Source: Nanobdellota archaeon
GTDB taxonomy: Archaea > Nanobdellota > Nanobdellia > SCGC-AAA011-G17 > GW2011-AR17
Assembly: GCA_018896675.1 (NCBI GenBank)
Contig: JAHIMK010000018.1
Coordinates: forward strand, 1-21,485
Length of the DNA stretch: 21,485 nucleotides
Direction: 5' to 3'
Below, one piece after another: positions 233 to 13,973 of this stretch. A model generated the notes under the pieces. The model ran no database searches and had not been told where the DNA came from. It saw only the letters and a list, made by a program, of their open reading frames with translations. Both the position numbers and the translations under genes were made by a program. How positions within the stretch are numbered: the stretch's first letter is position 1; each line of letters begins with the position of its first letter.

Positions 233-532
233 ATGGCTGTAGATGATAAAGTAAAGAAGATACACGAAGAGCTAAAAGAAAAATGGCTACCTATATTTAG
301 GGTAGGGTATGGAGCTGATGCAATAATTGAAGATATGGAATGTGTAAGAGCAGGAATACACGGGACAACATATAGGATTTTTGTTAAGAATCCGGAAGGG
401 AAGGAAGGAGAGCATTATCTTAGGTTGCTACCAGGAAACAATCACCCTGCAATGATTGACGGGGTATTGACTCAAGAAGGTCAAAATTATGTTGACTTTT
501 GGTCGGAGCACGGGAAAGTTGTCTGGTATTAG
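233..532 (+). CDS. hypothetical protein (99 aa from ATG 233)
   Basis: Open frame. GGGGGT (220-225) lies 7 nt upstream of ATG 233; the track start at 218 is a TTG extension. Oligo-T follows the stop. G+C is visibly higher than most of the window. No family recognised. Confidence 0.5.
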   Translation: MAVDDKVKKIHEELKEKWLPIFRVGYGADAIIEDMECVRAGIHGTTYRIFVKNPEGKEGEHYLRLLPGNNHPAMIDGVLTQEGQNYVDFWSEHGKVVWY

Positions 533-540
533 TCGCCCGC

Positions 541-559
541 TGTTTTTTTCTTTTCTTTG
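541..559 (+). terminator. oligo-T archaeal-type terminator candidate
   Basis: tgtttttttcttttctttg lies directly after the stop at 532. T7 and T4 runs are typical archaeal termination signals. Confidence 0.4.
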
Positions 560-745
560 TATTAGGCTTGTGAGCCACCTGAACTTTGCCTAACAGGAAT
601 TAATTTCAATTTTGCCCCTCGTAACATAATCATAAAAAATATTAAGATTGTCAATAAAGTCCTTCAAAGAAAGCCGCAAAAAAACCTAAGAAATTTTTTA
701 ATCAAAAACCAATATTTAAAAATAAGAAAATCCTGTTAACTATAA

Positions 746-1462
746 ATGAAAAATAATATCAAATACAAAGCAGCCACATTAGATGAAAGAAAAGAATATT
801 ACGAAAAAGAATTCTCTATAACAAAAGCCAAGCAATGGTTCAAAAAAAATAACATGAACCTGCCGCAACTTTGCGCATTAGATGCAGGTAGTGATACAGG
901 AATAATATTAAACAAGAAATGGAAAGATAAGATGTTTTATTTTGAATTCAAGGATTTAAAGAAGAAAATTCAGAAGTATAATCCGGAAGACATTTATTAT
1001 GACAGAAATGTTTATGATAATCCTAAAAAAGTGTTGGACACATTAAAGTTTGACAAACGGATAAAACAAGAACTTACGTTTGATATTGATGCAGATAACA
1101 TAAAATGCTCCTACTCAAAGCCTGTCTGTGACAAGTGCTTAAGCAAAGCATATGATTTTGCCATTAACATGAAAAAGGAATTGAAAAAATCCGGTTTTAA
1201 AAAAATAAGATTGGTTTATTCCGGCAGAGGCTTTCATCTTCACATATTAGATAAAAAAGCTTATTTCTTAAGTATTAAAGAGAGGGATTTACTTAATAAA
1301 AGATTCAATAAATATCCTATCGACCCATGGGTCTCAAAAGGCAATATCAGGCTTATAAGACTTCCTTATAGCATGAATGGGTTAGTATCTAGGATAGCAA
1401 CACCTGTAGAAAAAATATATAAAAAAGAAAAAACAATCCCTAAGTTTCTTAAGCTTTCTTAG
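746..1462 (+). CDS. priS: DNA primase small (catalytic) subunit PriS, short form (238 aa)
   Basis: AEP primase motifs are present: FDIDAD (motif I acidic pair), YSGRGFHLH (motif II SGxGxH) and DPWVS..RLIRLPYSMN (motif III). A Cys cluster CSYSKPVCDKC also fits. Confidence 0.8.
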   Translation: MKNNIKYKAATLDERKEYYEKEFSITKAKQWFKKNNMNLPQLCALDAGSDTGIILNKKWKDKMFYFEFKDLKKKIQKYNPEDIYYDRNVYDNPKKVLDTLKFDKRIKQELTFDIDADNIKCSYSKPVCDKCLSKAYDFAINMKKELKKSGFKKIRLVYSGRGFHLHILDKKAYFLSIKERDLLNKRFNKYPIDPWVSKGNIRLIRLPYSMNGLVSRIATPVEKIYKKEKTIPKFLKLS

Positions 1463-1532
1463 CTTTTTTCTTATAATAACTTTTTTTCTTGGCAGCTGCC
1501 TTTTTTGGTACGGCTTTTTTCTTTGCAGGCAT
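1449..1532 (-). CDS. 27-aa Lys/Ala-rich micro-ORF (MPAKKKAVPKKAAAKKKSYYKKKAKKA)
   Basis: Not in the ORF track because it is under 60 aa. ATG is at 1532-1530, preceded by GAGGTGA with 5-nt spacing. It overlaps the priS 3' end convergently by 14 nt. Coding status is unproven. Confidence 0.35.
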   Translation of the reverse strand: MPAKKKAVPKKAAAKKKSYYKKKAKKA

Positions 1533-1654
1533 TTTATTCACCTCTTAAGAAGATTTTTATTGCTTCTTAAGTAATCTTATGATTTTTTTCATATTTAAAT
1601 GATTCTAAATTAAAAACCATAAACTTTATAATAAAAATAGTGTTATTCCAATCT

Positions 1655-2833
1655 ATGATGTTCCAAGAGGTCTATATGGACAATGGGGCAACCACAATGG
1701 TTGATCCTAAAGTTTTGAAAGTTATGATTCCTTATTTTGAAAAGCATTATGGCAATGCATCTTCTACACATTCATTTGGTGAAAAAGCTAAAGAAGCTTT
1801 AGATGATGCTAGAAGAGTTATAGCTAAAGCGATTAATGCCAAGCCTGAAGAGATTATATTTACTTCTGGTGGTACAGAATCAAATAATTTGGCTTTGAAA
1901 GGATTAGCTTTTGCTAATAAAGATAAGAACCATATAATTACAACTAAAATCGAACATAAGTCTATTATCAATACATGCAAATGGTTAGAAAAACAAGGTT
2001 TTAAAATTAGTTATTTGAGTGTTGACAAGGAAGGTTTTGTTAATCCAAAAGATTTAGAAGCTGTAATAACTTCTAAGACATTGCTTTTTACAGTATTGCA
2101 TGGCAATAATGAGATTGGTACAATAAATGATTTAGAAGTTTTAGGTAAAGTTTGCAAGGAAAATAATATTTTATTTCATACAGATGCATGCCAAAGTTTT
2201 ACTAAAGTTGATATTGATGTTGAAAAACAACATTTAGATTTAGTAACTTTAAATTCTCACAAGATTCATGGCCCTAAAGGTGTTGGTGCTTTATATTTAA
2301 AAAAAGGAATTAAAATAGAAGTTTGGCAACATGGAGGCAATCATGAACGCGGTTTAAGGTCTGGTACTGAAAATATTCACGGCATTGTTGGTTTTGCTGA
2401 AGCGGCTAAAATTGGATTGAATAAAAAGCATGTAAAACAAATGTCAGAGTTAAGAGACAAAATGATTAATGAAATCTTAAAAATTCCAAAATCAAAATTA
2501 AATGGTGCTAAAGGCGATAAAAGATTGTGTAACAATATTAACTTTTCATTTAACTCAATTGAAGGAGAAGCTATCGGCGGTTACTTAAATCAAAAAATGA
2601 TTACAAGTTCAACCGGATCTGCTTGCTCTGCAAAAACTTTGGAGCCAAGCTATGTGTTAAAAGCTATTGGCTTAACAGATGAAGAAGCTAATGGAAGCTT
2701 AAGATTGACTATTAGCAGATTTACTACAGAAAAAGAAATAGATTATGTTATTGAAGTTTTGCCGAAGGTTATTGAAAAACTAAGAAAAATTTCTCCTTTA
2801 GGAAAACTAGCTGATTATATAATGAAAAATTAA
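1655..2833 (+). CDS. iscS: cysteine desulfurase, class V aminotransferase (IscS/NifS)
   Basis: N-terminal YMDNGATT, TSGGTESNN, the PLP-lysine motif SHKIHGPKG, RSGTEN, and the catalytic-Cys loop SSTGSACSA. I prefer the start at ATG 1655/1658 (MMFQEVYMDNGATT) over the GTG at 1640 used by the track. Confidence 0.9.
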   Translation: MMFQEVYMDNGATTMVDPKVLKVMIPYFEKHYGNASSTHSFGEKAKEALDDARRVIAKAINAKPEEIIFTSGGTESNNLALKGLAFANKDKNHIITTKIEHKSIINTCKWLEKQGFKISYLSVDKEGFVNPKDLEAVITSKTLLFTVLHGNNEIGTINDLEVLGKVCKENNILFHTDACQSFTKVDIDVEKQHLDLVTLNSHKIHGPKGVGALYLKKGIKIEVWQHGGNHERGLRSGTENIHGIVGFAEAAKIGLNKKHVKQMSELRDKMINEILKIPKSKLNGAKGDKRLCNNINFSFNSIEGEAIGGYLNQKMITSSTGSACSAKTLEPSYVLKAIGLTDEEANGSLRLTISRFTTEKEIDYVIEVLPKVIEKLRKISPLGKLADYIMKN

Positions 2834-2843
2834 AAAATATTTA
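2762..2843 (+). repeat. copy 1 (functional) of the duplicated iscS 3' end; partner at 3993-4073
   Basis: The last 23 codons plus stop match 3993-4064 at 61/72 nt with no indels. There is an identical 23-nt run, 2769-2791 = 4000-4022. Confidence 0.85.
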
Positions 2844-2888
2844 ATCACTGGCGAACCAAGTACAATTTAATTCTCAATTCAATAATTT

Positions 2889-3083
2889 TTAATTACTTTT
2901 TTTTACATTAACTGCTTTTGGACCCCTATCTCCTTCTTCTACATCAAATGTAACTGTGTCGTTTTCGTTTAAAGTTACATCTTCATCTAATGCTGATTTA
3001 TGGACAAATATTTCTTTTCCATCTTCAGCGGCAATAAACCCAAAGCCTTTACTTTCATTAAAAAATTTTACTGTTCCTTTCAT
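2889..3083 (-). CDS. csp: cold-shock domain protein (CspA family)
   Basis: 64 aa with RNP1 KGFGFI and RNP2 IFVHKS. AAGGAGA Shine-Dalgarno lies upstream of the ATG. Confidence 0.9.
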   Translation of the reverse strand: MKGTVKFFNESKGFGFIAAEDGKEIFVHKSALDEDVTLNENDTVTFDVEEGDRGPKAVNVKKSN

Positions 3084-3237
3084 TTTTTATCTCCTTATAT
3101 TTACTTATTGTTTTTTAAAAACTACCTAACAAATTTGTCAAATAAAAATTTTAATCGACAAATAGTCAAAAAGCCCTAATATATAAAATAAATAGTTCCT
3201 TTTTAAATGCTTCTATTTTATTCATTACGGCTATTAC

Positions 3238-3529
3238 ATCCTATTTAGAATCTGTGCTATCACGTTTTTAGGGCACAAGGAGATATTACCTATATAGAGT
3301 GAATAAATATCAGACAAATGGCAAAGCAGAAAGATTCTTTTTGATATACAAAACAGAGTTCGCGACTGGAAGTTTTTCTAGCCTAAAAGACTTCATTAAG
3401 CATTATAATAAAAGCCACCCTTATATGCGCCTTCATTATAAAACTCCTAAAGAAGTTTGGGATTCATTCAAAGTGCCTTAGTTTCGAGGTGTGCCTTAAT
3501 TTCGGGATAACACAATCCTATTTAGAATC
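3238..3529 (+). mobile_element. internally deleted IS481-like insertion sequence remnant with TIRs and a 15-bp target-site duplication
   Basis: The direct repeat atcctatttagaatc occurs at 3238-3252 and 3515-3529, immediately outside imperfect 24-nt terminal inverted repeats. The repeats are tgtgctatcacgtttttagggcac (3253-3276) and gtgccttaatttcgggataacaca (3491-3514), matching at 18/24 when one is reverse-complemented, with TGT termini. The interior encodes only a DDE-integrase C-terminal fragment. Confidence 0.7.
3299..3481 (+). pseudogene. C-terminal fragment of an rve-type DDE transposase/integrase
   Basis: QTNGKAERF (the catalytic-E region of the DDE triad) and HYNKSHPYMRLHYKTPKEVW match the conserved end of the integrase core domain. 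The N-terminal two-thirds is absent. Confidence 0.7.
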
Positions 3530-3567
3530 ACAAACCCTTATATACTGATGCCCTTTCTAACATATTT

Positions 3568-3936
3568 ATGGCAAGATTTGAACGTTCAAAAGAAAGAAAA
3601 AGCAAAACTGATTTTAAAGGTAGTTTTCAAAAGAGAAATACCGGAAGTAGGATGAATTTTGAAGATAATCCTGAGGTAAGGGAAAGGAGATATCCTGATA
3701 GAGAATTTAGACCTAACAGGGGAAATAGGCGCGAAGTCCAGATGACTAAAGTTACTTGTTCTTCTTGTGGTGAAGAATGTGAAGTTCCTTTCAAACCAGT
3801 TTCAACCAAACCTGTCTATTGTAATGATTGTTTTGCAAAAAAAGATAAAGGTAGTTTTGGTAAACCTTCTAATAAAGATTTTAACATAATTAATGAAAAA
3901 CTTGACAAAATAATGAAGGCTTTAGATATTGAATAA
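3568..3936 (+). CDS. CxxC-x17-CxxC zinc-ribbon domain protein with basic N-terminal region
   Basis: CSSC-(17 residues)-CNDC, counted directly, in an Arg/Lys-rich 122-aa protein. A TATA-like cccttatatac lies about 30 nt upstream. Confidence 0.6.
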   Translation: MARFERSKERKSKTDFKGSFQKRNTGSRMNFEDNPEVRERRYPDREFRPNRGNRREVQMTKVTCSSCGEECEVPFKPVSTKPVYCNDCFAKKDKGSFGKPSNKDFNIINEKLDKIMKALDIE

Positions 3937-3992
3937 ATTAATTTTTCTATTATTTTTGCCTTTTCTAATTTAATTGTAAAAAACAATAAGAA

Positions 3993-4064
3993 CCCAAGAT
4001 TATTGAAAAACTAAGAAAAATTCCCCTTTTAGGGAAATTAACTGATTCTGTAATGAAAGATTAA
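3993..4064 (+). pseudogene. relic copy of the iscS 3' end (last 23 codons plus stop), detached from any gene body
   Basis: It translates as PKIIEKLRKIPLLGKLTDSVMKD*, versus the IscS C-terminus PKVIEKLRKISPLGKLADYIMKN*. An in-frame stop lies just upstream (3987-3989). Its TAA overlaps the stop of the convergent gene 4061-4900 as TTAA. Confidence 0.85.
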
Positions 4065-4900
4065 AATATTTTTTTCAATTCCTTTATTCTTGTATCATAC
4101 TCTATAGAAAACCTAAACAAATTCCAAAAAACTTTCTGCAGCCAGGCAATCCATTCCTTATCATGAATTTCATAAAAAATCCTCTTGTTTTTCTCGATTT
4201 CATTCAGCTTATATTTATGTAAATACTCTTCAACTTTAAACTGCGCAAAATCATCATCAATAATTAGCCCTCTTAATGGCTGATAACAATGCCTAATTTC
4301 AATAAGATTTGGATATTTTTTAATCAAAAGCAAAAGCTGATTGATGTTTTTGATTGAAGTTACAGTTATTCTTGTTAATATCTTAAATTGAACTTTTCTC
4401 TTAAGCAACTCTTCCATAACAGACAAAACTTTTTCACCGTTTTCTTCTATATTTGTAAAAGACAGATTCCCGGAGAAAAAATATATATGGTTCTTTGCTT
4501 TACGCATAGATGAAATTAAGTTTTGATTCTCAGGCAATAGGGATTCATTAAATTCTTCGGAAAATACTTTTTTCTTGTCTTCTAGGATATATTGGTATAT
4601 TTCCATGAAATCAAAATCATCTTTCCATCTTCCTACTTTAATTTGATTAAAAAAATTCTCCTTTAGATCATCTGTATGCATTGATCCAGCATGATTATAG
4701 AATACAATTTTCAATGCGCCTTGTGTTCCTTTCCTAAATACCTTAATGTCTATCTGGCCTGTCTGTTCTTTAATTTGTTTTACATAAGAATCTGCCGTGA
4801 GCCAACTTTTTTTTATTAATTTAGACACTTCTTGGATTGTTTTAGGCTCAGCTTTGACAAAGCTTACAATTTTCTTTATATCTTGCTCTTTTAGAACCAT
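4061..4900 (-). CDS. putative transcriptional regulator, N-terminal winged helix plus uncharacterised C-terminal domain (TrmB-like architecture, weak)
   Basis: The N-terminal segment TIQEVSKLIKKSWLTADSYVKQIKEQ looks like a wHTH. The C-terminal IRHCYQPLRGLIIDDDFAQF resembles the TrmB C-terminal domain. The gene is divergent from the radical SAM cassette. The product call is tentative. Confidence 0.35.
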   Translation of the reverse strand: MVLKEQDIKKIVSFVKAEPKTIQEVSKLIKKSWLTADSYVKQIKEQTGQIDIKVFRKGTQGALKIVFYNHAGSMHTDDLKENFFNQIKVGRWKDDFDFMEIYQYILEDKKKVFSEEFNESLLPENQNLISSMRKAKNHIYFFSGNLSFTNIEENGEKVLSVMEELLKRKVQFKILTRITVTSIKNINQLLLLIKKYPNLIEIRHCYQPLRGLIIDDDFAQFKVEEYLHKYKLNEIEKNKRIFYEIHDKEWIAWLQKVFWNLFRFSIEYDTRIKELKKIF

Positions 4901-4935
4901 TTTAGATAATGAGATTTCATTAGTTTATATATCTT

Positions 4936-4990
4936 ATTAAACACTATTATAAAAAAATTAAACCTAAGTTTATCTTTAATTAAACACTAT
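4936..4990. promoter_or_regulatory. divergent promoter region with a 12-nt direct repeat (candidate operator)
   Basis: attaaacactat occurs at 4936-4947 and 4979-4990, 43 nt apart, each adjacent to cttatta. TATA-like atatataaac sits on the minus strand about 25-35 nt from ATG 4900. AGGTGA precedes ATG 5010. Confidence 0.35.
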
Positions 4991-5009
4991 AATCTTATTA
5001 GGTGATAAA

Positions 5010-5495
5010 ATGATGTCATTGATTGCTTCACAATTCGGTGTAATGGAAGAAGAAAAAGGCAAGGGTGTTGACTTAGAGGCATTTGTTAAAGCGCTTAAAA
5101 TTAGATATGAGAATTCACGAAGCCCTTCGTATCCTGGATGTGATTCATATCGTCTTGGTCCTGTAGAAACAGGAAGAATATGCCAAGCAATAGAAGAAGC
5201 AAAGGAACTAAACATTCTTTATCAGGAAGAATCAAGAGTTTATTTTGTTTGGGATGAAATGGAATCTATGCCTGAAAGTTACTTTCTTCATTATTTGAAA
5301 AAAATGGGTAAAGAGATAAGCAAAGATTGTAAAAATCTTTCTATAAGCCTAAGGCATTATAAAAATTTCCTTGAGAATATCAAAAAAATCAAAAGGAACA
5401 CTAAAGATATTGATGATGAAGTTATTTCTATTGATAATGTTATAGAAAAATTAAATGAACAAGAAATTAAAGGAGCTAAAAATGGCTTGCATTGA
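5010..5495 (+). CDS. hypothetical protein, first gene of the radical SAM cassette
   Basis: 161-aa ORF with AGGTGA 4 nt before the ATG. Its end overlaps the next gene. No family recognised. Confidence 0.55.
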   Translation: MMSLIASQFGVMEEEKGKGVDLEAFVKALKIRYENSRSPSYPGCDSYRLGPVETGRICQAIEEAKELNILYQEESRVYFVWDEMESMPESYFLHYLKKMGKEISKDCKNLSISLRHYKNFLENIKKIKRNTKDIDDEVISIDNVIEKLNEQEIKGAKNGLH

Positions 5496-6348
5496 AAAAA
5501 TCTATAGTGTATCTGCATTGGTTGGAAATGGTTCTTGTAATGCCAATTGTGATTTTTGCGCAGGGAAATATCTAAGGCCTGAAGCTAAGGAAAACAAACT
5601 TTATGATAAAAATTTAGAGGCTGCTATTAAATTGTCTGCTCGTTATGGGGGCTGGTCATTATCATTGACTTCAAGCGGAGAAGTTACTTGTGATTCCGAT
5701 GCCTTAATAAGAGCACTAAAAGTCTATCAAAAGTGTGCTAATCAAGGAGCTTATTTTCCTAATGTAAACTTATTTACTAATGGCATTCTTTTAGGTGATA
5801 AAGAATTTTGTAATAAATACTTAGATATTTGGAGAGAATTAGGATTAAATAATATCGCAATATCAATCCATAATGTAGATGAAAAAGAACAAGCAAAAGT
5901 TTATGGTTTGAAAAATTATCCTAAATTAGAAACAATTGTTAGTAATATTGAAAAGCATAGCTTGGGCGTGAGAGGAACTTTATTGCTTAGAAAAGGAGGA
6001 GTTGATAATTACAAGAAATATGAAAAATCAGTCAAAATTCTTATTGGGAAAGGCATTAATAATATCACTTCTTGGCCAGTCGGCAATCCAGATAATACTA
6101 GGAATAAGTATACTCCTTCAAGATTAAGCTTATTTGGAATAAGAAGTTGGTTGCATTTAAATGCAAAAAAATGCCATGGTCATGCCTGGGGCGGAGGAGT
6201 TTTTGATTATAAGGGGAATATCTTAAGATATACTGATTATGTCACCAAGCATAATCCCAAAAAGGATTTCGTAAGGCAGTTGGTTGTTTTCCAAGACGGG
6301 ACAGTTGCTTATTCATGGATAAGAGAAGGAGCATTATGCATAAGATGA
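5482..6348 (+). CDS. radical SAM enzyme (288 aa from ATG 5482), subfamily unassigned
   Basis: C19-x3-C23-x2-C26 in GSCNANCDFCAG, an SSGE (GGE-like) motif, FTNG, and ISIHNVDEKE. AGGAG (5471-5475) lies 6 nt before ATG 5482, which I prefer to the track start at 5455. There is no SPASM or twitch Cys cluster. Confidence 0.8.
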   Translation: MACIEKIYSVSALVGNGSCNANCDFCAGKYLRPEAKENKLYDKNLEAAIKLSARYGGWSLSLTSSGEVTCDSDALIRALKVYQKCANQGAYFPNVNLFTNGILLGDKEFCNKYLDIWRELGLNNIAISIHNVDEKEQAKVYGLKNYPKLETIVSNIEKHSLGVRGTLLLRKGGVDNYKKYEKSVKILIGKGINNITSWPVGNPDNTRNKYTPSRLSLFGIRSWLHLNAKKCHGHAWGGGVFDYKGNILRYTDYVTKHNPKKDFVRQLVVFQDGTVAYSWIREGALCIR

Positions 6349-6361
6349 AAAGGAGGTTAAA

Positions 6362-6901
6362 ATGGAAGAATTGGAATTAAAAAATAGGACAATTGACGCT
6401 TTATTACTGGGCTTCAAAGACCCAATAGCCTATGACTTATGCATCCCAAGCCTAAAAGTTATTTTTCAAAGTGTGCAATATTCAATTATTGAAGGATTCA
6501 AGTCAAAGTATCCGCACCTAAAAGCTAATTATTATGAAGAGACCAAGGATTTCTTTAGGGAAGGTTGTCTTAGATCAGCGCTTGAACCAATAAAAGACCT
6601 CCAGACTAAAGTCAAGGATTCATTGATAAGCGTATTAGCAAAGACAGCCGGGTGTGACTATGAAGGAGGATTTTTGTGGCCACCATACATGGAAACTGCA
6701 TTTAAGGATTTGCACAGGTATCGGGAAGTTAATTTTTCAAGGCATTGCAGCATCTATAAATTCAAAGAACCAAGAGAAAATGTGAAAAAAGAAGTAAAGA
6801 AGCATTTCAATGCAAAGGAAATGAAAAACTTTTATAAGCTGCATAAACATATGAGGGCTTATCTAAATAAAAGATTGGAATTTGTATTGGACACCATATG
6901 A
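6362..6901 (+). CDS. hypothetical protein, paralogue A (179 aa)
   Basis: AGGAGG (6351-6356) lies 5 nt before the ATG. It aligns end to end with the next gene (shared LELKNRTIDAL, PIK..KVK.SLI.VL, YKFKE.RE.VKKEV.KHFN, NFY.LHKHM.AY). Confidence 0.65.
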   Translation: MEELELKNRTIDALLLGFKDPIAYDLCIPSLKVIFQSVQYSIIEGFKSKYPHLKANYYEETKDFFREGCLRSALEPIKDLQTKVKDSLISVLAKTAGCDYEGGFLWPPYMETAFKDLHRYREVNFSRHCSIYKFKEPRENVKKEVKKHFNAKEMKNFYKLHKHMRAYLNKRLEFVLDTI

Positions 6902-6912
6902 GGAGGAATAAA

Positions 6913-7443
6913 ATGGATAAACTGGAATTGAAAAACAGGACAATTGATGCTTTAGTATTGGGCTTCAAAAAACCGATAATGTATGACCTATATCTCCCTG
7001 ACCTGAAGATTGTATTAAAAAGTTTCCAGCATTCTATGAACAAATTATTTAGAGAAAAATATCAGGAGTTAGAAGAAAAGCATTATGCAGATATAAATAA
7101 TTTCTTTAAAAAACCAGCCCTAGAATATATTTTCAAACCAATAAAAGAAATGAGAGTAAAGGTTAAAGAATCATTAATTGAAGTATTAGGAAAACAATCA
7201 GGACATGATTATGGTGGAACTTATTGGAACAAGCCATATATAGAATATGTTTTCAAAAATTCTGAAAGATATGAAGAAGTAATCTTTCCAAATTTGGGTA
7301 GCCTCTATAAATTCAAAGAAGAAAGAGAAGAAGTAAAAAAAGAAGTAAGAAAACATTTTAATAAAGCAGAAATGGAAAACTTTTATCAACTCCATAAACA
7401 TATGCAGGCTTATGTTGACAATCACTTCAAAATCCAACCTTAG
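6913..7443 (+). CDS. hypothetical protein, paralogue B (176 aa from ATG 6913)
   Basis: AGGAGG (6901-6906) lies 6 nt before ATG 6913 and overlaps the paralogue A stop. The track start at 6898 sits inside the SD. It is homologous to 6362-6901. Confidence 0.65.
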   Translation: MDKLELKNRTIDALVLGFKKPIMYDLYLPDLKIVLKSFQHSMNKLFREKYQELEEKHYADINNFFKKPALEYIFKPIKEMRVKVKESLIEVLGKQSGHDYGGTYWNKPYIEYVFKNSERYEEVIFPNLGSLYKFKEEREEVKKEVRKHFNKAEMENFYQLHKHMQAYVDNHFKIQP

Positions 7444-7448
7444 AAACA

Positions 7449-7456
7449 TTTATAAA
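7449..7456 (+). promoter_or_regulatory. TATA box (TTTATAAA) for the LSm-L37e unit
   Basis: The same octamer recurs upstream of several transcription units in the window. It is followed by a ~50-nt leader ending in GGAGG before ATG 7509. Confidence 0.45.
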
Positions 7457-7508
7457 TGAACATCTTTTCCTTGTAATAACAAATTTTTATTTTGTTGGAG
7501 GATAAAAT

Positions 7509-7736
7509 ATGGAAATTACAGACAGACCATTGGATGCATTAAATAATGCAAGAAATCAAAGAGTTATAGTAGAACTGAAAAACAAAGCTCAAGTTACTGG
7601 TAAACTTAAAGCATTTGATATACATATCAACGTAGTTTTAGAAGAAGCAGAAGAGCTTGAAAATGGACAATTAAAGAGAAAATTAGGCACTACATTCATC
7701 CGTGGCGATATGATTGTTATAATCTCTCCAGCTTAA
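7509..7736 (+). CDS. Sm-like archaeal protein (LSm/SmAP)
   Basis: 75 aa with the Sm1/Sm2 pattern RVIVELKN..VTGKLKAFDIHINVVLEEAEE and FIRGDMIVIIS. It sits in the conserved archaeal pairing with L37e. Confidence 0.85.
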   Translation: MEITDRPLDALNNARNQRVIVELKNKAQVTGKLKAFDIHINVVLEEAEELENGQLKRKLGTTFIRGDMIVIISPA

Positions 7737-7747
7737 GGTAATAAAAA

Positions 7748-7933
7748 ATGACTAAAGGCACAGCATCAATGGGTAAGAAGTCCGGTAAGGATGTTCATAT
7801 TCGTTGCAGAAGATGCGGAAGAGCAAGCTACCACAAAATTGATGGTATCTGTTCTGACTGTGGCTACGGCAAAACTAAAAAGATGCGTAAATACAGTTGG
7901 CAAAAAGTTGAGAAAAGACCAACTAGGCGCTAA
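7748..7933 (+). CDS. rpl37e: 50S ribosomal protein L37e
   Basis: MTKGTASMGKK..HIRCRRCGR.SYH......CSDCGYGKTKKMRKYSW contains the C4 zinc ribbon typical of L37e. Confidence 0.9.
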   Translation: MTKGTASMGKKSGKDVHIRCRRCGRASYHKIDGICSDCGYGKTKKMRKYSWQKVEKRPTRR

Positions 7934-8154: not shown

Positions 8155-9003
8155 ATGTTTAAAAAAATATCAAATGGATTAAAAAAAGCAGGTTTGATTT
8201 TCTTAGGAACTTTAATACCATATATTCCTATGGAAGCGCAAGCTCAAGAAGCAACTGTACAAACTCAAGAAACTTCGATTAAAGAAGGAAAATTAGGAAT
8301 TAGTTATGGCAATAAAGAACAAAGCTTAATGGGCAGAGATTTTGCAAAAGGACACTCCATTGAATTCGATGCTGAAGCTAGGATTAAAATTAATGAAAAA
8401 GCAGGCATAAAATTAGATGGTTTAGTAAGGTTAGAAGAATTTGATTATGTTGATGGAAATGGAGATATAAAAAATGGATTTTTAGATACTAATTTAGTTT
8501 TAGAAAGATATGTTGGATTGGGCAATAGTACTATGAGAATAGGTTTTGGAGTTAATTTTGATTTTAATAGAACTGAACAAACATATGAAAATATTAAAGT
8601 TAATGTTAAAAATATTACTGCTGGACCTGTAATTACAACTAATATTGATTCAGATTACGTTGATTTTAATATATTATTAGGATCTGGATTTGGTAAAGCT
8701 GGTAATGATGTTCAAGGTCAAGGTTTAGGAATTAAACCTAAATTAAGAATAGGATTAAATTTTGATTTAAAAAAATTTAATGTTCCTTTAAGATTAGAAA
8801 ATTATGGAGATATTGAAATTACTTTATTAGAAACCGAGAATACTACAAGAAATGAATATAATCTAGAATTAGGTACTGAACTTAATTATGAAATTGTAGA
8901 TAATCTTTCAGTTGGTTTAGGATATTCACATAGCAGGCATTATGGTAACCAAGATAATGTCCAAAGCAATACTTTAAAAGCTGGATTAAAGGTAGAATTT
9001 TAA
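8155..9003 (+). CDS. secreted protein with outer-membrane beta-barrel-like features
   Basis: N-terminal signal peptide with an AQA-QE cleavage-type site. There are many alternating-hydrophobic strands (MRIGFGVNFDF, LRIGLNFDL, LSVGLGYSHS). The C-terminal LKAGLKVEF alternates hydrophobic residues and ends in Phe. A TATA (cttataaata) lies about 30 nt upstream. Confidence 0.55.
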   Translation: MFKKISNGLKKAGLIFLGTLIPYIPMEAQAQEATVQTQETSIKEGKLGISYGNKEQSLMGRDFAKGHSIEFDAEARIKINEKAGIKLDGLVRLEEFDYVDGNGDIKNGFLDTNLVLERYVGLGNSTMRIGFGVNFDFNRTEQTYENIKVNVKNITAGPVITTNIDSDYVDFNILLGSGFGKAGNDVQGQGLGIKPKLRIGLNFDLKKFNVPLRLENYGDIEITLLETENTTRNEYNLELGTELNYEIVDNLSVGLGYSHSRHYGNQDNVQSNTLKAGLKVEF

Positions 9004-9064: not shown

Positions 9065-10252
9065 ATGAATAAACTAATCTTTACAATGTTAATAATGTTA
9101 TTATTTGCAGTTAGTTTTGTAAGTGCTACAGACTATAGCATTGAAAAAGTTGCTATTAACGGACTTTTTATTGAAAATGAAACAGTAGCTTTAGACTTAG
9201 GTACCAGAGCGCAAATTGATGTTTGGGTTAAAGGTTTTGCTGAAAAAGATGTTAAGGTAAAAGCTTGGATTAGTGGTTATGAGTATGATGATGTTCAAGA
9301 TGTTTCTGAAACTTTTCAAGTTTCTACAGATACATTGTATAGAAAAGAATTATACTTAAATATTCCTCAAGATTTAAGATTAGATAATAAGAATTATAAA
9401 TTATATATTGAAGTTTCTGACAAAAAAGATTATGTTGAAAAAGTTTATTCTGTTCATATTCAAGAAAGAATTCATGATATAATTGTACAAGATGTTATTA
9501 TCAGGCCAGGCACAATGACTGATGCTGGCAATACTTTGGCTGTGCAAGTTAGGTTAAAGAATTATGGTAAGAGACAAGAGCAAGATGTTAAGGTTGAAGT
9601 TACTATACCTCAACTAGGAGCTTATTCTGTTACTTATGTTGATTTTTTAGATTCAATTGACAGCAATGATAATAGTGAAAGCACAGCTTTTATTCCTTTA
9701 AAGATTCCTAAAGATGCTCCAACTGGAGATTTTCAAATTAAAGTTAAGGCTTTATACAGTAACTTAAATGAAGAGACTGAAGCTACAAGGATGATTTATG
9801 TTAATGGTATTGATGTTCAAGCTGAAAAACAAGCTGGAAGCATTGTGTTGATTTCTTCTAAAAAAGATCATGCTTTGAAAGAAGAAACTGAATACAAAGT
9901 TGGAATTGCTAACTTAGAGAAAAGTAGAAAAAGTTATACTGTTCAAATTACTGGCTTGGATGACTGGGCAAATTATGCTATCATGCCTGCTTCTTTAGAT
10001 GTTCTTGGAGAAGGTTCAGGAGAGTTCTTGTTAAAGGTTATTCCTTTTGATTCTGGATTGCATAAGTTTACTGTAAAAGTTTTAGAGGCTGGCGTTGTTG
10101 TCAAGGAAAGCTCTTATAGTGTAGATGTTGCTACTGAGAAACAAGGTTTGTTCAATAGCAATAGAAATTTAATTTTAGGATTAATGATTGTTGTTTTAGC
10201 AATTGCTTTGATTGCTGCTATTGCGCAAGGTATGAAACCTGAAAAGCACTAA
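9065..10252 (+). CDS. cell-surface protein: signal peptide, Ig-like/CARDB-like repeats, C-terminal transmembrane anchor
   Basis: N-terminal MLIMLLFAVSFVSA. Repeated beta-rich modules such as NTLAVQVRLKNYGKRQEQDVKVEVTIP. C-terminal LILGLMIVVLAIALIAAIA followed by a basic tail. TATA at 9031-9038. Confidence 0.6.
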   Translation: MNKLIFTMLIMLLFAVSFVSATDYSIEKVAINGLFIENETVALDLGTRAQIDVWVKGFAEKDVKVKAWISGYEYDDVQDVSETFQVSTDTLYRKELYLNIPQDLRLDNKNYKLYIEVSDKKDYVEKVYSVHIQERIHDIIVQDVIIRPGTMTDAGNTLAVQVRLKNYGKRQEQDVKVEVTIPQLGAYSVTYVDFLDSIDSNDNSESTAFIPLKIPKDAPTGDFQIKVKALYSNLNEETEATRMIYVNGIDVQAEKQAGSIVLISSKKDHALKEETEYKVGIANLEKSRKSYTVQITGLDDWANYAIMPASLDVLGEGSGEFLLKVIPFDSGLHKFTVKVLEAGVVVKESSYSVDVATEKQGLFNSNRNLILGLMIVVLAIALIAAIAQGMKPEKH

Positions 10253-10254
10253 AA

Positions 10255-11103
10255 ATGAGAGAAATATTGTTTAGACCAAATAAAGAATTAATAAAATTAT
10301 TATGTGATAAAGAGAATATTCCCATTCTAGAGCATATTATTGAAAGAGATGGAAAAGAATTTGAAAGATTAAAACAACTTAAAGAAAAAGGATTAATAAA
10401 TCTTGGGGAAAAAGTTAGAAAAAAAGAATTTAAAGATATTTGTTATGAAATAAAAGCAGAAGTTGATGGTTTATTAGACATACAAAATACTATTTTACCA
10501 AAGACTAAACAAAGAACTTTTTTTTCTAATGATTTAGGATTATTTTTGGCTTATATTGCAACCCCTGCTTTAATTAAAAGTGGTAGACTTTCTGATGTTT
10601 TATTTATGGGATTAGCTATAACTATGGTAAAATTATCAATGTATAATTCTTCATATCACTACATTTTCAAAAGAATTAAAATAACCAAACAAGATAAATA
10701 TTTAACAAAAATTATATTTGCCCATGAGTATACTCATTTTTTACAACATAAAATCCTTAATTGTGATTTTCAAAAGCATAAGATGTTTACTGAAGGCCAT
10801 GCAATAGGAGTAGAGAAAACTTTAGTTAATTTATGTTCTGAACCAGAACAAAAAGATAATTTTCTTTATTCTGAACTTAAACAAAGGTTCTCAGGATTAA
10901 AACAAGCCTATTATTCCTTATGTGATAGACTGAATGTTAAATGTCATGAAAGTCTTTTAAATATAGATAAACCTTTTGGAAATAAATTAAAACGTTTTTT
11001 TAAAAGAGGATCTTTTCTGTATCATGATGCAGGAAACGCTTTATTCCAAATATATGAAGAAATTCATGGCAAAGATATTTACAAACAAATTTTACAGGCT
11101 TAA
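10255..11103 (+). CDS. putative HExxH zinc metallopeptidase-like protein
   Basis: AHEYTHFLQH is an HExxH motif with a downstream E in FTEGHAIGVEK. Two hydrophobic segments precede the motif. The gene starts 2 nt after the surface-protein stop. Family not identified. Confidence 0.4.
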   Translation: MREILFRPNKELIKLLCDKENIPILEHIIERDGKEFERLKQLKEKGLINLGEKVRKKEFKDICYEIKAEVDGLLDIQNTILPKTKQRTFFSNDLGLFLAYIATPALIKSGRLSDVLFMGLAITMVKLSMYNSSYHYIFKRIKITKQDKYLTKIIFAHEYTHFLQHKILNCDFQKHKMFTEGHAIGVEKTLVNLCSEPEQKDNFLYSELKQRFSGLKQAYYSLCDRLNVKCHESLLNIDKPFGNKLKRFFKRGSFLYHDAGNALFQIYEEIHGKDIYKQILQA

Positions 11104-12769: not shown

Positions 12770-12878
12770 TAGTTAATTAAACAATCTTCCAATTAAAAAG
12801 ATTTCTTTTAATATTTTCGAAAATTTGTTCACAAAACCGGACAAGAAAATAAATAGTAGTTCTTTATCTAAAATCAAA

Positions 12879-13973
12879 ATGAAAAAAGAGGTAATAAAAA
12901 AAGGATTTAGCAATATTTATGATAACATCAAAATAATAATTGAACAAGCAAGAAACAAAACTTTCAAAGTAATTAATTCTGTTATGGTTCAAGCTTATTG
13001 GGAAATAGGAAGAACTATTGTTGAAGAAGAACAAAAAGGTAAGAAAAGAGCTGATTATGGCAAATATTTGATAAAAGAGCTTTCTGAAAGATTAATAAAA
13101 GAATATGGTTCAGGGTTTAAAGAAAGAAATTTATATGAAATGCGTAGATTTTACTTAACTTTTCCAAAATGGAACGCACTGCGTGCAAAATCTCAAAAAA
13201 GCCAGAAATTGCACCCAGTGGGTGCAAAATCTCAAAATATTTATGATAAATTAAGCTGGACCCATTATAGATTCTTAATGCGAATAAAAAAAGAAAATGC
13301 AAGAAAATTTTATCTTATAGAAACAGCTAAGAATCAATGGAGTAAAAGAGAACTTGAAAGACAAATAAATAGTTTACTTTATGAAAGGCTTAGCTTAAGT
13401 AAAAATAAAAAAGAAGTAAAAGAATTTGCTAAAAAAGGACAGATAGTAAAAAAACCAGAAGATATTATAAAAGACCCTTATGTTTTAGAATTCTTAGATT
13501 TAAATGAAAATAAAAAATATCTTGAAAAAGACCTAGAAAGTTTACTTATAAGTAAACTCAAAAGTTTTTTATTAGAACTGGGAAAAGGATTTTCATTGGT
13601 TTCAAGGCAAAAAAGAATTAATGTAAGTAATGAACATTATTACATTGATCTTGTTTTTTACAATTATATTTTAAAATGTTTTGTATTAATTGATTTAAAA
13701 GTTGGTAAATTAAGCCATAAAGACATAGGACAAATGGATTTTTATGTAAGATATTTTGAAAAAGAAATTAAGCAAGAAGATGATAATCCTACAATTGGAT
13801 TAATCCTTTGCTCTGACAAAGACGATACAATGATAAAGTACACATTATTAGAAGATAATGACAAAATATTTGCTTCAAAATATAAACTTTGTTTACCTAC
13901 AGAAAAACAATTAAAAAAAGAATTAACAAATGAAAGATTAAAAATCGAAATGGAAAAAAAACTAAAAAATTAA
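12879..13973 (+). CDS. DUF1016/YhcG-family PD-(D/E)xK nuclease-like protein
   Basis: YWEIGR, LSWTHYRFLM, KDPYVLEFLDL, and the core YIDLVFYN..FVLIDLKVGKL typical of the family. I prefer ATG 12879 to the TTG at 12825 used by the track. Confidence 0.75.
   Translation: MKKEVIKKGFSNIYDNIKIIIEQARNKTFKVINSVMVQAYWEIGRTIVEEEQKGKKRADYGKYLIKELSERLIKEYGSGFKERNLYEMRRFYLTFPKWNALRAKSQKSQKLHPVGAKSQNIYDKLSWTHYRFLMRIKKENARKFYLIETAKNQWSKRELERQINSLLYERLSLSKNKKEVKEFAKKGQIVKKPEDIIKDPYVLEFLDLNENKKYLEKDLESLLISKLKSFLLELGKGFSLVSRQKRINVSNEHYYIDLVFYNYILKCFVLIDLKVGKLSHKDIGQMDFYVRYFEKEIKQEDDNPTIGLILCSDKDDTMIKYTLLEDNDKIFASKYKLCLPTEKQLKKELTNERLKIEMEKKLKN

Follow-up and report, generated by a model that had tools for sequence, protein, structure and literature searches.

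A stretch of 21,485 nucleotides from a Nanobdellota archaeon (assembly GCA_018896675.1, contig JAHIMK010000018.1, positions 1 to 21,485; here the window) carries at 5010-7443 four tightly packed genes, of which the second encodes a radical S-adenosylmethionine (SAM) enzyme, and a divergently transcribed winged helix-turn-helix (wHTH) gene ahead of them. Comparison with related loci in archaea, bacteria of the Candidate Phyla Radiation (CPR) and phages showed that the only working parts of the operon that are conserved in archaea are the putative wHTH regulator, termed c1, and the radical SAM (rSAM) enzyme encoded by gene 2, termed rSAM-A. The enzyme represents a subfamily, new within the MoaA/viperin-like structural class, that no curated family fits, and the cassette in the window is a local elaboration of a wider regulator-rSAM system. 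We give about an even chance to the reading that rSAM-A is a regulated radical SAM enzyme acting on a free nucleotide or pyridine nucleotide, with chemistry at the ribose and a role in nucleotide or nicotinamide adenine dinucleotide (NAD) homeostasis. This reading is drawn from the partner enzymes encoded in the operons of other genomes, the association with the regulator NrdR in CPR bacteria, the neighbours of the phage copies, a sister family located in NAD operons and nearest folds that are MoaA- or viperin-like.

A preliminary description of the window, made from its sequence alone, had presented the four genes as a self-contained module forming one translationally coupled operon. The operon is upheld by the overlaps, the spacing and the ribosome-binding sites: the genes are co-directional, genes 1 and 2 overlap by 14 nt, a gap of 13 nt follows gene 2, AGGAG or AGGAGG sites are present, and the AGGAGG of gene 4 (6901-6906) overlaps the stop codon TGA of gene 3 (6899-6901). 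The self-contained module did not survive. Outside the window all four genes are found together in just four further assemblies, of the same organism, while in 60 other loci genes 1, 3 and 4 are replaced by other genes and only the regulator and the rSAM are shared, so that the cassette is not a conserved unit and, as a unit, is essentially never syntenic elsewhere. The four Nanoarchaeota metagenome-assembled genome (MAG) contigs in question (in GCA_022013275.1, GCA_018895155.1 and two more) encode exactly the same gene 2 protein in an identical gene order, with DNA 100% identical over 3383 bp.

Gene 2 contains the motifs C19-x3-C23-x2-C26, TSSGE (residues 63-67) and TNG (99-101), and its place in the radical SAM superfamily, already proposed from these motifs, was confirmed by PF04055 (38.5 bits against a cut-off of 29.5), the sole Pfam match. 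An alternative ATG is found upstream at 5455 in the list of open reading frames (ORFs), but every homologue begins with M-x-C-I-E-K-I-Y-S-V, which makes 5482 the right start. By Pfam the protein has no SPASM or twitch domain, again as first described, and C231 and C286 are its only cysteines beyond residue 110; likeness to the SPASM/twitch maturases EpeE, SkfB and anSME is limited to the core, and membership of that group was not found. Comparisons with pVip/viperin, QueE, MoaA, RlmN/Cfr and the activases, which the preliminary description had proposed, gave no match above cut-off, and every test for membership of a curated family failed, so that gene 2 does not fall within a characterised housekeeping rSAM family. 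The NCBIfam viperin model NF038283 (viperin_w_prok) reached 17.8 bits (E 0.0015) against a cut-off of 180, the pVip matches in PADLOC were marginal (E 0.0016 for 'viperins associated with kinases', and 0.014) and PHROGs gave marginal matches at most. MoaA was the top curated sequence model for gene 2 and most of its relatives, at 26 bits, with TIGR02666 at 25.9 bits (cut-off 284) and TIGR02668 at 25.6 bits (cut-off 325), and Mob_synth_C was not found by Pfam. No NCBIfam model of QueE, RlmN/Cfr, NrdG or PflA matched gene 2 at E <= 1, and distant relatives matched NrdG2 at only 22-34 bits and RlmN at 24 bits. A sequence search of the Protein Data Bank (PDB) with gene 2 returned nothing useful, and a full-text search of the literature found no paper on rSAM-A or its sister family. 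The labels 'radical SAM protein', 'MoaA family' and 'AslB' that genes of this type carry are functionally uninformative. What is new is an rSAM subfamily of a known superfamily together with a putative dedicated regulator, and neither rSAM-A nor its sister family is covered by curated models.

Conservation of at least 95% was found at 113 of the 288 positions, the first and last residues included, in an alignment of 62 rSAM-A sequences that spanned archaea, CPR bacteria and phages. C19, C23, C26, C231 and C286 are invariant in this set and C3 is present in 61 of the 62; a C-terminal motif, HGHxWGGGVxD...RQLVVFQDGxVxYSW, is unique to the family. The AlphaFold2 model of gene 2, with a predicted local distance difference test score (pLDDT) of 71 and a predicted template modelling score of 0.77, has a confident beta/alpha barrel core (pLDDT 85-97). 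Its low-confidence segments are 1-4, 17-32, 65-69, 202-205, 229-257 and 281-288; the second of these contains the rSAM cluster cysteines, the third the SAM-binding motif, and the segments 1-4, 229-257 and 281-288 hold C3, C231 and C286, one each. When the model was searched with Foldseek, MoaA came first (2fb2/1tv7, E 8e-9, template modelling score 0.6), followed by EpeE, SkfB, anSME, viperin-like enzymes and BlsE; identity was about 15% throughout.

MoaA is the GTP 3',8-cyclase of molybdenum cofactor biosynthesis, and a three-cysteine auxiliary cluster binds its nucleoside triphosphate (NTP) substrate. Besides being the best fold match it is of similar size to rSAM-A and carries an N-terminal CX3CX2C, and its three-cysteine cluster may be set beside the three further conserved cysteines of rSAM-A. 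To judge from the model, an auxiliary cluster of the MoaA kind, with an open iron at which the substrate would bind, may be held by C3, C231 and C286. The two enzymes are nonetheless distinct, with 26 bits for rSAM-A against a MoaA cut-off of 284, about 15% identity and no Mob_synth_C. The extra cysteines of rSAM-A are at the extreme N terminus, position 231 and the extreme C terminus, which is not the MoaA pattern, its C-terminal motif is its own and no molybdopterin genes are found near it.

A search of 5.8 billion proteins recovered 604 homologues of gene 2. The best 120 of them are 76-100% identical to it and range in length from 288 to 310 amino acids (aa), with exactly 288 aa in nearly every case, and the named members among these 120 are mostly Nanoarchaeota, Woesearchaeota and Nanoarchaeia. 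In a scan limited by the search patterns used, rSAM-A was found in 58 of 185,579 species-representative genomes. The loci so found were mostly from Woese-, Pace- or Nanoarchaeota; 11 loci had a CPR-type context, labelled as Paceibacterota, Moraniibacteriota, Collierbacteria, Dojkabacteria, a single-cell Patescibacteria genome and a Parvarchaeota MAG. CPR-named loci were mostly 61-71% identical to gene 2.

The degree of constraint on rSAM-A is extreme. Between genomes in which TopA is 45-50% and SerRS 43% identical, rSAM-A is 72-83% identical (mostly 74-79%), the corresponding values being 31-62% for Metallophos and 48-65% for c1. The synonymous divergence (dS) fell below 1.0 in only one tested pair and was often saturated, while the nonsynonymous divergence (dN) was 0.10-0.20. 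The gene order TopA - c1 - operon - rSAM-A - Metallophos ... SerRS is kept in many loci and, together with the low dN at near-saturated dS, argues for long vertical inheritance under very strong constraint. In a neighbour-joining tree, midpoint-rooted and without support values, archaeal rSAM-A sequences formed a single clade and CPR and phage sequences were interleaved at the tree's base. One 749-kb contig labelled Dojkabacteria (L026, JBMNHB010000001.1) carries an rSAM-A that is 80% identical to archaeal proteins and nested in the archaeal clade, with nrdR directly upstream. The contig is genuinely bacterial since it encodes a YkuD L,D-transpeptidase, and its rSAM-A looks like a recent transfer from archaea to CPR bacteria.

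Homologues of c1 were found in 44 archaeal loci, in the same divergent position as in the window. In an alignment of 31 sequences of this protein of about 280 aa (A2) the mean column identity was 59%. A TrmB-like plan, with a wHTH joined to a C-terminal TrmB_C or phospholipase D-like domain, was considered for c1. An N-terminal match to HTH_11 was obtained for 10 of the 31 (best E 9e-5), and the C-terminal half gave weak matches only, to PLDc_2 in four and DUF7931 in three. Relationship to the ATP-cone regulator NrdR or to NUDIX regulators was rejected by hhalign. The repeat-bearing spacer across which the wHTH gene had been described as divergent contains two exact copies of TTAAACACTAT (Table 1), and the two-site layout is conserved in related loci. 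Two matches to TTAAACACTAT at no more than one mismatch are not significant over the whole window (1.42 expected). In the spacers of related c1 operons the direct repeats TACAACACTAT and TACAAC(T/A)CT typically stand some 63 and 19 nt ahead of the first ORF, on either side of an AT-rich, TATA-like stretch; they were 43-44 bp apart in 17 of the 22 two-site loci, that of the window included. A-rich variants of the repeat like those of the window occur in three loci (L011, L013 and L019) in which c1 is also closest to that of the window, the repeat variant thus co-varying with the c1 subfamily. On the strength of this conserved architecture c1 would bind the two direct repeats, 43 bp apart and on either side of the promoter, and control the operon.

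Among CPR bacteria a different regulator is encoded nearby. NrdR, the ATP/dATP-sensing repressor of ribonucleotide reductase genes, adjoins rSAM-A as a protein with Zn-ribbon and ATP-cone in 9 of the 11 CPR-type loci, usually divergently, and is the sole recurrent neighbour there. In two loci with an archaeal-clade rSAM-A, nrdR is upstream on the same strand, and in two further loci the divergent gene encodes a wHTH-NUDIX protein. The spacers between nrdR and rSAM-A contain seven CWATATATWG cores in 1.5 kb, compared with a density of 0.24 per kb over the rest of the same loci, an enrichment of about 20-fold that is suggestive, the count being uncorrected for the AT-richness of intergenic DNA. 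The full 16-mer NrdR-box consensus was absent from the spacers at up to four mismatches and only the 10-bp core is conserved; a further element, GCACAAyATATgGCTCTTTTAAT, is common to four Paceibacterota-type loci. The arrangement resembles that of an NrdR regulon, in that rSAM-A is divergent from nrdR with boxes of this type in the common spacer, but the gene beside nrdR is not a known ribonucleotide reductase or activase, and the archaeal regulator is an unrelated protein with its own operator. No ribonucleotide reductase was found among the annotated neighbours of rSAM-A; large neighbours considered as candidates proved to be an ABC transporter, tRNA synthetases, GatA/B, DnaE, FtsH, Hsp70, a phage portal and a terminase.

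Copies of rSAM-A were also found in phages. On one phage contig (L055, region 341-7932) an rSAM-A that is 69% identical to gene 2 is located between the large terminase and a Mu-type portal; the gene that comes after encodes a Mu protease fused to NUDIX. In IMG/VR, 15 contigs of 5-501 kb (L076-L090), all but one longer than 36 kb, carry an rSAM-A that is 61-70% identical. The immediate neighbours of phage rSAM-A include NADAR, HD, an AAA_33 kinase, Tpt1/KptA, PolB and FtsH, and DNA methylases, PolB, PurA, IMPDH/GuaC and FolE are found more widely around it. Among GenBank phages there was no match to gene 2; three records of huge phages matched a distant relative, with 23-28% identity.

Gene 2 also has a sister family. 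In an exhaustive search of cluster representatives, a few clusters more than 40% identical to gene 2 were followed by a shell of full-length relatives at about 30%. The sister family, rSAM-C (alignment A3), gave 844 matches in CPR bacteria and in archaea of the Diapherotrites, Parvarchaeota, Aenigmarchaeota, Nanoarchaeota plus Nanohaloarchaeota (DPANN) assemblage. It is like rSAM-A in host range and in length (about 290 aa), is about 30% identical to it over the full length, and has the C-terminal motif in common in the form HGAxVYDxxGQNVCL...RQLIFFPDGxxxYxW. At five of six loci (L068, L070, L072, L073 and L075, with the rSAM at about 7001-7870) rSAM-C is inside an NAD operon, with neighbours that include PncA, PncB, NadE, PnuC, NadR, NAD kinase, NadA, NMNAT, NUDIX, ADP-ribosyl glycohydrolase and NrtR; the sixth locus is mobile-looking and carries isochorismatase and NAMPT. 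An aminotransferase-like protein is often found 3' of rSAM-C or fused to it (666-aa protein P0189). A second rSAM follows rSAM-C at one locus and mirrors the tandem of rSAM-A and a paralogue described below. Both rSAM-A and rSAM-C are present on one contig (L006 and L068). Unlike rSAM-A, the sister family is placed under NrtR and has no C3, C231, C286 pattern. The occurrence of rSAM-C in NrtR-controlled operons for NAD salvage or de novo synthesis may be a finding in its own right.

The genes that accompany rSAM-A vary widely from operon to operon. ORFs were called and clustered in 68 loci. In 23 of 60 non-redundant operons the gene just 5' of rSAM-A encodes an AAA_28 P-loop kinase, a CYTH protein or both fused into one, and it often overlaps rSAM-A by 14 nt, as gene 1 does in the window. 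Stand-alone AAA_28 kinases align with the ribosylnicotinamide-kinase (RNK) domain of NadR from the sister-family operons (25-29% identity, lowest E 4e-8). A paralogue of 263-284 aa, rSAM-B, is encoded immediately 3' of rSAM-A in roughly half of the loci, and rSAM-B is likewise present on about half of the 15 IMG/VR contigs. Other partners are dCTP-deaminase-like, thymidylate-kinase-like, HD and wHTH-NUDIX proteins and an NAD(P)HX dehydratase, and there are in addition a HAD-like protein, Zn-ribbon mini-proteins and several families without a match.

Genes 1, 3 and 4 had been described as matching no recognisable family, and this remains so: neither they nor c1 gave anything significant in Pfam, NCBIfam, PADLOC or PHROGs, and gene 1 and the profiles of the gene 3/4 family and of c1 gave no useful match to PDB sequences. 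Gene 1 (cluster c11) was present only in the organism of the window, and hhalign did not relate it to the kinases, the CYTH proteins or any other accessory family. As stated, genes 3 and 4 are paralogues, with 53% identity (E 5e-54); a dN/dS of 0.20 at a dS of 1.67 indicates that both are truly coding and under purifying selection. The AlphaFold2 model of gene 3 was unusable (pLDDT 38.8). Gene 4 occupies the site at which many relatives carry rSAM-B. A word-indexed search for gene 3 homologues returned gene 3 alone and so missed its 53%-identical paralogue 12 nt downstream, which makes 'ORFan' calls from that search unreliable. By locus clustering and a metagenome scan the gene 3/4 family was found in two other lineages only, one of them without the rSAM, so that the co-occurrence looked for at the suggestion of the preliminary description was hardly borne out; the family was not found in IMG/VR. 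In one lineage (L048/L092) a family member comes directly after c1, at the head of an rSAM-A operon. In the other (L093 at 5762-6301, L094 at 2629-3168) it stands between TopA and Metallophos, which is the usual site of the c1/rSAM-A operon, without either c1 or rSAM-A; it may be what remained when the operon was lost, or the family may have a function of its own. A common Gly/aromatic motif that would mark the partners as shared substrates was rejected, as jackhmmer and hhalign linked neither gene 1 nor genes 3 and 4; one partner cluster, c10, and a protein of L048 are maybe related (60% probability by hhalign).

Taken on this evidence, rSAM-A would use the 5'-deoxyadenosyl radical on an NTP or deoxynucleoside triphosphate (dNTP), or on NAD, nicotinamide mononucleotide or nicotinamide riboside, the gene context being the guide. 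The reaction would take place at the ribose ring, as for example a dehydration, deoxygenation or rearrangement, and its product would go into the nucleotide or NAD homeostasis of salvage-dependent organisms. The kinases and phosphohydrolases in the operons of other genomes would process its substrate or product, while genes 1, 3 and 4 would be dispensable lineage-specific additions and not obligatory partners. Expression would be coupled to nucleotide status by c1 in archaea and by NrdR in CPR bacteria. A more specific proposal, that rSAM-A, alone or with rSAM-B, is a new step in the dNTP or NAD supply of salvage-dependent ultra-small cells and phages, we regard as a long shot. In its boldest version this would be a SAM-dependent reduction or dehydration of the ribose of a nucleotide, independent of ribonucleotide reductase and controlled by NrdR, with the conserved terminal cysteines delivering reducing equivalents or holding a substrate-binding cluster.

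Several observations weigh against a nucleotide-directed enzyme. The nucleotide substrate is one that we infer from gene context, and the operon in the window itself has no kinase, CYTH, HD or NUDIX partner. The peptide modifiers EpeE, SkfB and anSME, of the SPASM/twitch type, scored similarly in the fold search. The context also does not speak with one voice, as NrdR suggests dNTP metabolism while NrtR, RNK, NADAR and NAD(P)HX dehydratase suggest NAD. The NrdR boxes, whose enrichment takes no account of AT-richness, could serve autoregulation of nrdR. Conservation over the whole surface to such an extreme is commoner in enzymes with macromolecular partners, and the auxiliary cluster that three cysteines may form is drawn from their conservation and the confidence of the model.

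An alternative that takes up some of these points is that rSAM-A modifies a macromolecule, either a protein (genes 3 and 4 or c10-type proteins) or an RNA (tRNA, rRNA), the small neighbours being substrates or chaperones. Conservation from the first to the last residue is consistent with this, as are the maturases of proteins and of ribosomally synthesized and post-translationally modified peptides among the fold matches (EpeE, SkfB, anSME), the many operons with small family-less and Zn-ribbon mini-proteins, and the neighbours of RNA-repair type in some phage or mobile loci (Tpt1 and the AAA_33 kinase for rSAM-A, Ro60/TROVE for the sister family). No candidate substrate protein is conserved, however, and in CPR loci the rSAM stands alone with nrdR; the gene 3/4 family is also found without an rSAM. 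The SPASM and twitch domains are missing from rSAM-A, the models of RlmN, Cfr, MiaB and TYW1 were unmatched by gene 2 at E <= 1, and the NAD-operon setting of the sister family would be hard to explain. We judge modification of a macromolecule unlikely.

The second alternative is an antiviral module of the viperin type, in which the rSAM turns an NTP into a chain-terminating analogue and the variable neighbours are accessories for immunity, supply or nucleotide depletion; pVip-kinase and dCTP-deaminase/dGTPase defence systems are the models for such accessories. Viperin and pVip convert CTP to 3'-deoxy-3',4'-didehydro-CTP (ddhCTP), and they are like rSAM-A in being about 290 aa long, often beside nucleotide kinases and among its fold matches, and in being NTP-directed, as rSAM-A would be. 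The weak model matches given above (E 0.0016 in PADLOC, 17.8 bits in NCBIfam) point the same way, as do the changeable accessory genes, kinases, dCTP deaminase and HD among them, and the patchy distribution suggested by 58 of 185,579 genomes in the pattern-limited scan. The score is ten-fold under the cut-off, however, and the PADLOC match is marginal. Extreme purifying selection, conserved synteny and a stable chromosomal position are unlike defence genes, the partner regulators are c1 and, in CPR bacteria, NrdR, the phage copies are carried in regions of replication and nucleotide metabolism, and the sister family is in NAD operons. The defence role that the preliminary description had entertained is accordingly disfavoured and we hold it to be quite improbable. 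A nucleotide-directed rSAM is most likely, a peptide-maturation or defence cassette less so. Very unlikely indeed is a glycyl-radical-enzyme activase, for instance a non-canonical one for class III ribonucleotide reductase, which would explain the link to NrdR (adjoining in 9 of 11 CPR loci and in two archaeal-clade loci) and would be in keeping with the weak NrdG2 matches of distant relatives (22-34 bits), but NrdG and PflA models were unmatched by gene 2 at E <= 1, neither NrdD nor another glycyl radical enzyme was among the annotated neighbours of any locus, the N-terminal motif departs from the activase signature, and 288 aa with a distinctive conserved C-terminal domain is unlike NrdG.

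A large part of microbial diversity consists of DPANN archaea and CPR bacteria, which depend on nucleotides and cofactors obtained by salvage and of which much of the core biochemistry is unassigned. An enzyme that is common to two domains and to phages, better conserved than topoisomerase I or SerRS, tied to NrdR in CPR bacteria or to a dedicated wHTH protein in archaea, and with a sister family in NAD operons is therefore a strong candidate for the missing chemistry of nucleotides or NAD. An enzyme of 288 aa, a defined putative operator and a short list of candidate substrates provide the material for experiments.

The features of the window are collected in Table 1. The preliminary description had placed the module among housekeeping genes, and such genes of archaea do flank the cassette, with the small subunit of primase, a class V aminotransferase, a cold-shock domain (CSD) protein and a zinc-finger protein upstream and LSM, L37e and tRNA-Leu downstream.

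Table 1. Features of the window in and around the cassette (nucleotide positions in the window)
Feature	Position	Strand	Remarks
Class V aminotransferase	1640-2833	+	cysteine-desulfurase-like; Aminotran_5, E 7e-82; 2 kb upstream of the regulator gene
Integrase-core-like ORF	3299-3481	+	60 aa
Divergent wHTH gene (c1)	4061-4900	-	279 aa; putative dedicated regulator of the operon
Operator-like direct repeat, site 1, TTAAACACTAT	4937-4947	+	exact copy; upstream of the presumed TATA box
Operator-like direct repeat, site 2, TTAAACACTAT	4980-4990	+	exact copy; 43 bp after site 1, 19 nt before the ATG of gene 1
Gene 1	5010-5495	+	161 aa; AGGTGA at 5000-5005; final 14 nt overlap the start of rSAM-A
Gene 2 (rSAM-A)	5482-6348	+	288 aa; AGGAG at 5471-5475, 6 nt upstream of the ATG
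Gene 3	6362-6901	+	179 aa; AGGAGG at 6351-6356, 5 nt upstream of the ATG; 13-nt gap after gene 2
Gene 4	6913-7443	+	176 aa; AGGAGG at 6901-6906
T5-A-T4 tract	7484-7493	+	3' of the stop codon of gene 4; read from the sequence
ORF with OMP_b-brl match	8155-9003	+	282 aa
Surface-type protein	9065-10252		no assigned role
Surface-type protein	10255-11103		no assigned role
YhcG/DUF1016 nuclease	12825-13973	+	PD-(D/E)XK type

The T5-A-T4 tract beyond gene 4 is a plausible candidate for an archaeal oligo-T terminator ending the operon. The aminotransferase could provide sulfur for Fe-S clusters. The 60-aa ORF resembles the C-terminal part of an integrase core, with a weak rve_3 label in an identical locus (L003), and probably represents the remnant of a transposase, just upstream of the regulator gene; an intact DDE transposase is found a few kb off on a related contig (L001). 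Downstream, the ORF of 282 aa has an N terminus like a signal peptide and matches OMP_b-brl with 31.7 bits (cut-off 28.7), a bacterial outer-membrane beta-barrel domain whose presence in an archaeal genome is surprising. The two surface-type proteins follow this ORF, and the YhcG/DUF1016 nuclease is encoded farther downstream.

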